Part shown: positions 23,212-24,459 of the stretch, piece by piece
How the letters are laid out: each line of letters begins with the position of its first letter
Position numbering within the stretch: position 1 is the first letter of the stretch
Assembly (NCBI GenBank): GCA_031969375.1
Contig: DALYKJ010000064.1
Coordinates: forward strand, 1-31,405
Source of the DNA: Coleofasciculaceae cyanobacterium CTOTU46645
GTDB lineage: Bacteria; Cyanobacteriota; Cyanobacteriia; Cyanobacteriales; Coleofasciculaceae
Length of the DNA: 31,405 nt
Direction of reading: 5' to 3'
Notes under the pieces: generated by a model
What the model was told of the DNA's origin: nothing
Databases searched by the model: none
Seen by the model: the letters and a program-made list of their open reading frames with translations, nothing else
Position numbers and translations under genes: made by a program

Positions 23212-24459
23212 CTACCTAACAATACAAATACCGCCAATTTGGAGAGTACATTGTTGTGGTTTAGCGACTGGATCTAACTTGCGGGTAGTGAGATTATACT
23301 TGTATTCTCCAGCAGGAAAAATGCGGTTGGGATTGGCACAGTATCGATAGGTTTGAGTGCCTTCGGGATAGGTGATAACGACTAAAGAATTAGTTGATGC
23401 TGGGCAGGTATCTAAAACCGTCAATCCATAATCCTTTTGCAAGAGTTGTCGTCGGGGATCGGTGCTAGGATTTACTGCTGTGGTAGAAGAAGAATTATTA
23501 CCAGTTGCAGAAGGTGCGCCCGGTTTTAATTCACCAACAGCTAAATCGTAAGTATATTGTCCGGCTCGGAGGAAACGGTTAGGATTGGCACAGTAGGTGT
23601 AAGTTTGACCGTATTCTGGGAAATTGGCAACTACGAGCTTATCTGTTGTGGACGGGCATTTATCGAGAACAGTTAATCCATAGTCATTTTGCAGGAGTTG
23701 TCGTCTGGGATCTGTAACGGGAGTCACAGGAGAGGGGGTTGAGGGATTTGTCACAACCGCAGGAGTTCCCGGTTTTAATTCACCACTGGCAAGATCGTAA
23801 GTGTATTGTCCGGCTTGCAGGAAACGGTTAGGATTAGCACAGTAGGTATAAGTTTGACCGTATTCTGGGAAATTAGCAACTACGAGCTTATCTGTTGTCG
23901 CGGGACATTTGTCGAGAAGAGTTAGCCCATATTCATCCCGGAGGAGTTGTCTTCTGGGATCGTTGTTAGGAGATGTAGGTGGATTAGTGGGGGTTTGTGC
24001 GGTTGTGTCTCCGGTAATCCCTGAAAGAGCGAGTCTGTATCTGCCTCTAGTGTTATTTTGTCCTAAAATAAGGAGTCGGTATTCACCATCTGTGGTTACT
24101 TTGTAACTTAGAGACCTGGTTTTGTCATTGTAAGCAACTTGGTTACCTGTTTGTGATGAGGTTAAGACAAGGATGGGTATGAGGCTGCTACCATCCTCAA
24201 CTTCAACTGTGACTTGAATGGTATCCCCTCGCTTGCTGTTGAAAATATATTCTTCTCCAGCAGCAGTCTGAAAGGGAGAATTGCGTAAGGATTGGTTGCG
24301 ATAGCGGAAGGAGGGAGAGTTTGTCTGGATGAATCCATTGACAGTATCGCCATTCTTCAGTCTGGTAGCTGCTCCAGCCATGTCGGCGATAATGGAGAGT
24401 ATCATCCCGGTAATCGCCACGCTGGCAGCAACTTTATGGAAACACTTACGGCTAATCAT
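23212..24459 (-). CDS. Secreted/cell-surface repeat protein. It has a signal peptide, a PPC-like beta-sandwich N-domain (about 130 aa) and three about 85-aa repeats separated by Pro/Thr/Ser-rich linkers. Repeat consensus: DPRRQLL..YGLT.LDKCP.TTDKLVVANFPEYGQTYTYCANPNRF..AGQYTYDL..GELKPG, with 2 Cys per repeat.
   Basis: 415 aa. The hydrophobic N-terminus is VAASVAITGMILSIIADMAGAA. Repeats 1 and 2 are near-identical at both protein and DNA level. The PPC-like call rests on the G.T.F....AGE.YIF....GDT..V.V......DP.L.L.......A.ND...........G.Y.L pattern. I recognise no catalytic motif. Confidence 0.7.
   Translation of the reverse strand: MISRKCFHKVAASVAITGMILSIIADMAGAATRLKNGDTVNGFIQTNSPSFRYRNQSLRNSPFQTAAGEEYIFNSKRGDTIQVTVEVEDGSSLIPILVLTSSQTGNQVAYNDKTRSLSYKVTTDGEYRLLILGQNNTRGRYRLALSGITGDTTAQTPTNPPTSPNNDPRRQLLRDEYGLTLLDKCPATTDKLVVANFPEYGQTYTYCANPNRFLQAGQYTYDLASGELKPGTPAVVTNPSTPSPVTPVTDPRRQLLQNDYGLTVLDKCPSTTDKLVVANFPEYGQTYTYCANPNRFLRAGQYTYDLAVGELKPGAPSATGNNSSSTTAVNPSTDPRRQLLQKDYGLTVLDTCPASTNSLVVITYPEGTQTYRYCANPNRIFPAGEYKYNLTTRKLDPVAKPQQCTLQIGGICIVR
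23529..24043. repeat. Two tandem about 255-bp near-identical DNA repeats inside the 23212-24459 CDS. They encode protein repeats 1 and 2.
   Basis: Blocks starting ccggttttaattcacca... at about 23529 and about 23772 are about 90% identical over about 250 bp. Confidence 0.75.

Follow-up and report, generated by a model that had tools for sequence, protein, structure and literature searches.

The subject of this work is a gene in a 31,405-nucleotide stretch of DNA from Coleofasciculaceae cyanobacterium CTOTU46645 (contig DALYKJ010000064.1), hereafter called the window. On the minus strand, at positions 23212–24459, lies a complete open reading frame (ORF) of 415 codons plus a stop codon. A preliminary description had placed a repeat-containing gene here, and the ORF indeed encodes three modules of 66 residues each. 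From Met27 onward its product is 100% identical to a protein of Cyanobacteria bacterium UBA11367 (P0001), which is labelled “hypothetical”. The gene product is a Sec-exported, non-enzymatic modular protein, composed of a head with the PPC fold, three undescribed modules of the disulfide type and a C-terminal Cys hairpin. Scans of the 415-residue protein against Pfam-A 2025 and NCBIfam 20.0 gave no family match, even at E ≤ 10, and detected no catalytic domain.

Architecture of the protein

The domain boundaries, the disordered linkers and the C-terminal hairpin were taken from a full-length AlphaFold2 (AF2) model. All parts are encoded on the minus strand. The signal peptide (residues 1–31; 24367–24459) contains a basic n-region, MISRKCFHK, a hydrophobic core, VAASVAITGMILSII, and A-G-A ahead of the predicted cleavage site. 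It is followed by an N-terminal all-β domain (residues 32–150; 24010–24366), a β-sandwich resembling PPC domains and collagen-binding domains (CBDs). Linker 0 (residues 151–166; 23962–24009), which is rich in Pro, Thr, Ser and Asn and predicted to be disordered, with a predicted local distance difference test (pLDDT) score below 50 for residues 152–162, leads to module 1 (residues 167–232; 23764–23961; DPRRQLLRDEYGL...C...YCANPNR...AGQYTYD...LKPG). Module 2 (residues 250–315; 23515–23712) is separated from module 1 by the disordered linker 1 (residues 233–249; 23713–23763), whose sequence is unrelated to those of linkers 0 and 2, and from module 3 (residues 334–399; 23263–23460) by linker 2, also disordered (residues 316–333; 23461–23514). 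Module 3 is of a “terminal type”: its orthologue in each family member is the last module. Finally, the last 12 residues (404–415; 23215–23250), CTLQIGGICIVR-COOH, form a C-terminal motif that is predicted to fold as a β-hairpin. The mature protein has eight Cys.

At the DNA level, a direct-repeat search identified three direct copies of 201 nucleotides (23260–23460, 23512–23712 and 23761–23961), spaced by 252 and 249 nucleotides, with identities of 86% and 65% between the outer copies and the middle copy. In the protein these appear as 66-residue cores with Pro/Thr/Ser linkers of 17–18 residues between them, giving a period of 83–84 residues. Tandem Repeats Finder, run on the window, did not report the three-copy array because the similarity is limited to the cores.

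A presequence of about 30 residues with the features of a signal peptide was recognized by manual sequence-feature analysis in all 89 aligned homologues. Its n-region contains a median of two Lys or Arg residues, the maximum 12-residue Kyte–Doolittle hydropathy has a median of 2.24, and small residues occupy positions −3 and −1 in every homologue, in an A-x-A arrangement directly ahead of the first folded residue. By this analysis the n-region, the h-region and the −3/−1 residues are those of a substrate of Sec and signal peptidase I, and the presequence contains neither a lipobox Cys nor a twin-arginine motif. The GenBank entry for P0001 (389 residues) begins at Met27, without the signal peptide (region 24382–24459). 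This start is probably wrong and cuts the signal peptide off, because the longer N-terminus is retained in all 88 homologues other than P0001 and because residues 1–28 are disordered in the full-length model, in which the fold is confident from about residue 31. The protein had previously been called secreted; the evidence for this, a signal-peptide-like N-terminus in all the homologues, reaches as far as export across a membrane.

The 66-residue module

The modules follow the consensus DxRRQLLQxxYGLxVLDxCPxxxxSLVVVxFPExxQTYxYCANPNRxxxAGEYTYNxxTxxLxP, in which C19, P20, C41, G51 and Y53 are invariant. Both Cys, already pointed out as conserved in the preliminary description, are present in 216 of the 216 modules extracted from the family. 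An AF2 model of module 2, based on a 127-sequence module alignment, has a pLDDT of 89.6 and a predicted template modelling score of 0.72 and consists of one N-terminal helix and four strands. Structure prediction of a single repeat had been proposed together with the claim that the repeat matches no known domain, and both can now be addressed. A module profile search against PDB sequences gave no significant match (best E 0.53), and a Foldseek search of the PDB folds with the module model gave a best E of 1.8 and a template modelling score of at most 0.39. The claim therefore holds across Pfam, NCBIfam, and PDB sequences and folds: no described sequence family includes the module, and no solved structure could be recognized as its relative.

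The N-terminal head domain

The hidden Markov model of PF04151 (PPC) does not match the window protein even at E ≤ 10 and thus stays short of its gathering score. Weak matches were obtained in 21 of the 89 homologues (best E 2e-5), and a few homologues carry a precomputed PF04151 match. The sequence alignment of the N-terminal domain to the collagenase CBD of PDB entry 5sv5 is short. The modelled β-sandwich can be superposed on solved PPC and CBD structures, and the model shows the domain as a diverged member of the PPC/collagen-binding type. It does not occupy the position expected for a pre-peptidase domain, C-terminal to a secreted peptidase, since it is N-terminal and no peptidase domain was found in the protein. 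In a single metagenomic homologue (P0046, 282 residues) the signal peptide runs straight into three modules and the PPC-like domain is missing; the head apparently can be lost.

PPC domains usually partner secreted peptidases, and small tandem disulfide modules are a common format among inhibitors. The protein might thus be a periplasmic hydrolase inhibitor, which would block lysozymes or proteases either in the manner of PliG, the periplasmic inhibitor of g-type lysozyme, or as a tandem of small disulfide-stabilised domains. The gene of an LD-carboxypeptidase (S66), found immediately upstream in about nine loci, could be read in the same sense, but S66 enzymes are cytoplasmic and no cognate hydrolase is conserved nearby. 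Moreover, the match to PliG ranks below that to the collagenase CBD and reflects a generic β-sandwich, and the module matches no inhibitor fold. We regard an inhibitory role as quite unlikely.

The C-terminal tail

The last 12 residues of the family members follow the consensus C-T-V-x-[VI]-G-G-[IV]-C-[ILV]-V-[KR], directly followed by the stop codon. The two Cys are conserved in 88 and 89 of the 89 members, and within the Gly pair the second residue is found in 88 and the first in 75. The AF2 model places strands at residues 406–408 and 411–413, with a pLDDT of about 70. The tail was also considered as a sorting signal of the PEP-CTERM/exosortase, GlyGly-CTERM, type IX secretion system (T9SS) C-terminal domain or LPXTG kind. 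These candidates were rejected, as the tail has 12 residues, contains no transmembrane segment and matches no sorting domain in NCBIfam or Pfam.

An almost invariant C-x7-C motif at the very C-terminus, in host taxa that are mostly sheath- or bundle-forming filamentous cyanobacteria, recalls a self-assembling fibre or sheath subunit, whose Cys hairpin would link subunits head to tail by intermolecular disulfides or β-strand addition. Such a role is very unlikely. The even number of Cys in the mature protein suits an arrangement in which all pairs are intramolecular, the matches to Ena are low-ranked and express a generic jelly-roll similarity, and assembly machinery is absent from the conserved neighbourhood of the gene.

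Distribution of the family and of the module

The search yielded 96 relatives among 5.8 billion clusters, all of them called “hypothetical”, and the named sources are without exception filamentous non-heterocystous cyanobacteria (Coleofasciculus, Limnofasciculus, Leptolyngbyaceae, Kovacikia, Pantanalinema and Aerosakkonema). An exhaustive HMMER search of 1.84 billion representative proteins with the module profile returned 33 proteins at E ≤ 1e-3, 14 of them at E ≤ 1e-10. When each GTDB species, represented by one genome, was scanned for the pattern of a trimmed alignment of the terminal module and the tail, 35 loci came to light in organisms of the same kinds, and the genera Symplocastrum, Argonema, Microseira, Microcoleus, Scytolyngbya and Leptothermofonsia were added; strain ESFC-1 has no homologue among these 35 loci. 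The search results for the literature on cyanobacterial exoproteomes and PPC domains, taken by themselves, contain no description of the family. The family is small, vertically inherited and restricted to filamentous non-heterocystous cyanobacteria.

The repeat search and copy count in other cyanobacteria that the preliminary description had suggested gave one to four modules per protein. Among 97 proteins (the window protein and its 96 homologues), eight contain one module, 54 contain two, 34 contain three and one contains four. In the distant half of the family, the apparent two-module proteins have an extra, shorter and more diverged module right after the N-terminal domain (ADQVMQDVLKLRVIGCGVPNVARIKIG..ERCTRDIE.G.YTYD).

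Among the weaker profile matches there is a compact form of the module, ..LL.SWGL...C......I.ID...YC..P....AG.Y.YN..T..L, in one or two copies. It is found behind a signal peptide alone (P0104 and P0106), behind a PPC-like domain (P0118 and P0121), or at the C-terminal end of proteins that start with a membrane anchor and contain a coiled coil of about 200 residues (P0105, P0112, P0116, P0120 and, from Allocoleopsis, P0135). The family module alignment and the compact-module alignment were matched by hhalign with a probability of 99% and an E of 6e-18. Proteins with the compact module have no Pfam or NCBIfam assignment; the compact-module profile retrieved almost nothing in a word-indexed search, and only six relatives were obtained with the coiled-coil protein P0105 as the query. 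In P0140 (494 residues), of the same family as P0105 and P0135, the place of the modules at the C-terminal tip is taken by a COP23 domain (PF14218), so that two domains of unknown function have been swapped. Six further candidates, weak matches with multiple repeats (P0101, P0108, P0110, P0111, P0113 and P0119), were rejected as module relatives. They are T9SS, Ig, PKD or choline-binding repeat proteins, in which only short Thr/Tyr-rich strands match, and we regard these matches as compositional noise.

Evolution of the modules

Over a core of 198 nucleotides the identity between modules 1 and 2 is 85.9%, and 88% of their residues are shared, whereas module 3 is 61–66% identical to them in nucleotides and 59–64% in residues. 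The divergence of the third copy is thus as previously described, but the value of about 90% over 255 bp given for the first two was too high. Nucleotide identity falls to background across the core boundaries, and the linkers are unrelated; since identity collapses at the module edges, the linkers were not duplicated. Between modules 1 and 2, the central 80 or so nucleotides are about 96% identical and the flanks about 78%. For this pair, the rates of nonsynonymous (dN) and synonymous (dS) substitution are 0.069 and 0.54, respectively (dN/dS about 0.13), and dS between module 3 and the other modules is saturated.

In all three-module proteins, the first two modules are closer to each other (61–95% of residues) than either is to the third. 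A neighbour-joining tree groups the C-terminal modules of all proteins in one clade, and this module type is therefore old. Modules 1 and 2 fall in separate positional clades in the Coleofasciculus-type orthologues (P0004, P0006, P0008, P0010, P0012 and P0013), so that their duplication predates those species. In the clade of the window protein, which also contains P0002, P0003 and P0005, both modules lie inside the clade of module 2 and positional orthology is blurred. Modules 1 and 2 of P0002 are 95% identical, and P0005, which has 81% identity to the window protein, has two modules, one having been lost; another homologue, P0011, has four. The closest clade thus has two or three copies, with modules 1 and 2 clustering together there and as positional orthologues in the sister lineages, and with module 3 always separate. 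Between orthologues, dN is 0.17–0.32 on the N-terminal domain and the modules, against a saturated dS (dN/dS roughly 0.1–0.2 on the domains), and the linkers evolve fastest, with a dN of 0.4–0.9.

These data bear directly on the interpretation offered in the preliminary description, namely that the protein is an adhesin or lectin of the cell surface and that its repeats are multiplying at present through recent tandem duplications, under diversifying selection. In favour of it are the close likeness of modules 1 and 2, which cluster within one protein in several lineages, and a copy number that varies from one to four, even in a relative as close as P0005. The age of the array speaks against it: three modules are the commonest state in the window protein's half of the family, the layout is common to several genera and to 34 of the 97 members across several cyanobacterial families, the six proteins named above have modules 1 and 2 in separate orthologous clades, and module 3 belongs to an ancient clade of its own. 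A fresh tandem duplication of 250 bp would not end exactly at the module edges and leave unrelated linkers. In a young array whole units, spacers included, are nearly identical and synonymous differences are few, whereas here the 86% identity is found in the cores only and a dS of 0.54 is not very recent. The pair has a dN/dS of 0.13, and among orthologues purifying selection is strong. We therefore give this interpretation a small chance of being right.

The array is best read as an old scaffold on which unequal recombination or gene conversion has acted. The data indicate that the whole protein is under purifying selection, with homogenisation of modules in the lineage of the window protein, and is not undergoing diversifying expansion. 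Unequal recombination would change the number of modules between one and four, and in the window lineage module 2 may have served as the template for homogenising module 1, or for a new duplicate after the loss of the original module 1.

Genomic context

The repeat-protein gene is flanked on one side by a gene of the Na+/Ca2+-exchanger family (21675–22682) and on the other by a gene for a hybrid response regulator/histidine kinase with receiver, HisKA and HATPase domains (25019–26275, plus strand), beyond which lies the enolase gene. In 41 other loci, no immediate neighbour from the window recurs. The Mo/cation/kinase neighbourhood, which had been put forward as meaningful context, is thus not conserved, and a functional tie to the adjacent Na+/Ca2+ exchanger, TOBE protein or hybrid kinase was rejected, none of them being a conserved neighbour. 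What is conserved is either enolase followed by the repeat-protein gene, or the order S66, repeat-protein gene, hemE and an NmrA-like gene. The first arrangement, in which enolase is directly upstream and in the same orientation, characterizes the Coleofasciculaceae; the two genes are directly adjacent in the Coleofasciculus loci L001, L002, L007–L013 and L038. The kinase gene of the window looks like a lineage-specific insertion into this conserved pair. In the second arrangement, the repeat-protein gene precedes hemE and the NmrA-like gene in about 22 loci (Leptolyngbyaceae, Oculatellaceae-type, Microcoleus, Argonema and others). Together these arrangements indicate a vertically inherited single-gene unit, whose neighbours yield no functional clue.

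The same adjacency to hemE, immediately upstream and in the same orientation in several families, could be taken to tie a protein of the thylakoid lumen or periplasm to tetrapyrrole metabolism. In most of these loci, however, the intergenic gaps are about 80–280 bp, and the linkage is lost in the Coleofasciculaceae, including the window, where enolase is the neighbour. HemE is cytoplasmic while the repeat protein is exported, and the latter has no cofactor-binding signature. A tetrapyrrole role is scarcely credible.

A promoter and terminator scan around the gene detected no terminator-like site, and promoter-like sites occurred at background frequency. The 559-bp region upstream of the gene contains a heptamer tandem repeat of about six copies (24545–24591; AATGGGG on the plus strand, CCCCATT on the gene strand), which we take to resemble the short tandemly repeated repetitive (STRR) heptamers of cyanobacteria. 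Farther upstream in the window, NifW, a ThiF/HesA-like protein and a HesB/IscA-like Fe-S assembly protein (17678–19271, plus strand) and a 69-residue TOBE, molbindin-like protein (21371–21580, minus strand) are encoded, from which it follows that the window borders a nitrogen-fixation cluster in a non-heterocystous filamentous cyanobacterium. An 881-residue ORF (28641–31286, plus strand) strongly matches the eukaryotic Major Vault Protein (MVP), with the Vault repeat at E 2.6e-68, MVP_shoulder at E 1.1e-52, and Vault_2, Vault_3 and Vault_4. Among bacteria, homologues of MVP have been reported from a few cyanobacteria.

Discussion

The function that we favour for the repeat protein, with the chances of being right or wrong about evenly balanced, is binding or scaffolding outside the cytoplasm, in the cell envelope or the extracellular matrix, at the peptidoglycan, the outer membrane, or the sheath and extracellular polymeric substances. 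In this view the protein would offer several ligand-binding units, namely the PPC-like head and the disulfide-locked modules, spaced by flexible linkers, and the C-terminal Cys hairpin would be a conserved docking or anchoring element. The main reason, an indirect one, for thinking that the module contacts something in the envelope is its placement at the far end of anchored stalks in the coiled-coil proteins. A bolder proposal, which we put forward tentatively and consider doubtful rather than probable, is that the module is a new cyanobacteria-specific extracytoplasmic binding domain, possibly with a new fold, by which filamentous cyanobacteria would contact an envelope or sheath component in at least two ways: through the secreted PPC-headed Cys-hairpin protein and through the tips of coiled-coil stalks anchored in the inner membrane.

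Several points weigh against assigning the protein to the envelope or matrix as a binding protein. Neither experiments nor the gene context point to a ligand. A cyanobacterial Sec signal peptide may also route a protein to the thylakoid lumen and does not fix the compartment, and the neighbouring hemE, enolase and LD-carboxypeptidase genes are cytoplasmic housekeeping genes, uninformative on function. The disulfide pairing is deduced from the invariance of the Cys only, and the confidence of the C-terminal hairpin model is only moderate. The fold search covered PDB structures, so that relatives of the module may exist among proteins of unsolved structure.

The envelope, sheath and matrix proteins of the mat- and crust-forming filamentous cyanobacteria, such as Coleofasciculus, Microcoleus and the Leptolyngbyaceae, are little known. 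Only such organisms harbour the family, which is conserved and evolves under purifying selection, and its domain is undescribed in current databases. Defining the module would give annotation pipelines a new family and provide a tractable candidate for envelope and sheath biology, although the practical gain will stay modest as long as neither a ligand nor a phenotype has been identified. What is new here is a small domain that lacks annotation and an uncommon, conserved motif at the C-terminus, rather than a new kind of system.

Comparison with known systems

For the N-terminal domain, the closest known systems are the CBDs of clostridial and Bacillus collagenases (ColG s3a/s3b and ColH s3; PDB 5iku, 1nqd, 3jqw and 5sv5; PF04151). 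These are found at the C-terminus of a pre-peptidase, whereas the domain of the window protein is N-terminal in a peptidase-free protein, lies below Pfam detection and contains a conserved inserted segment, NSPxFRFRN. PliG (PDB 4dzg and 4dxz) is also among the closest systems, with a weaker match than the collagenase CBD; unlike the window protein, it is a stand-alone protein of about 110 residues, with neither repeats nor a C-terminal motif. The overall layout recalls secreted carbohydrate-binding proteins and enzymes in which carbohydrate-binding modules (CBMs) are joined by Pro/Thr/Ser linkers. Unlike such enzymes, the window protein has no catalytic domain, and its module has no match to a CBM family and shows no evidence of sugar binding. 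The module itself is shared, in its compact form (L-L-x-S-W-G-L-x-x-x-C ... Y-C-x-x-P ... A-G-x-Y-x-Y-N), by the anchored coiled-coil stalk proteins (P0105, P0112, P0116, P0120 and P0135–P0139; for example from Allocoleopsis sp.), which like the window family are cyanobacterial, unannotated and provided with Pro-rich linkers ahead of the modules. The stalk proteins differ in having no PPC-like domain and no C-x7-C tail, in an N-terminus made of a membrane anchor and a coiled coil some 200 residues long, and in modules that lack the β1–β2 extension of about eight residues.

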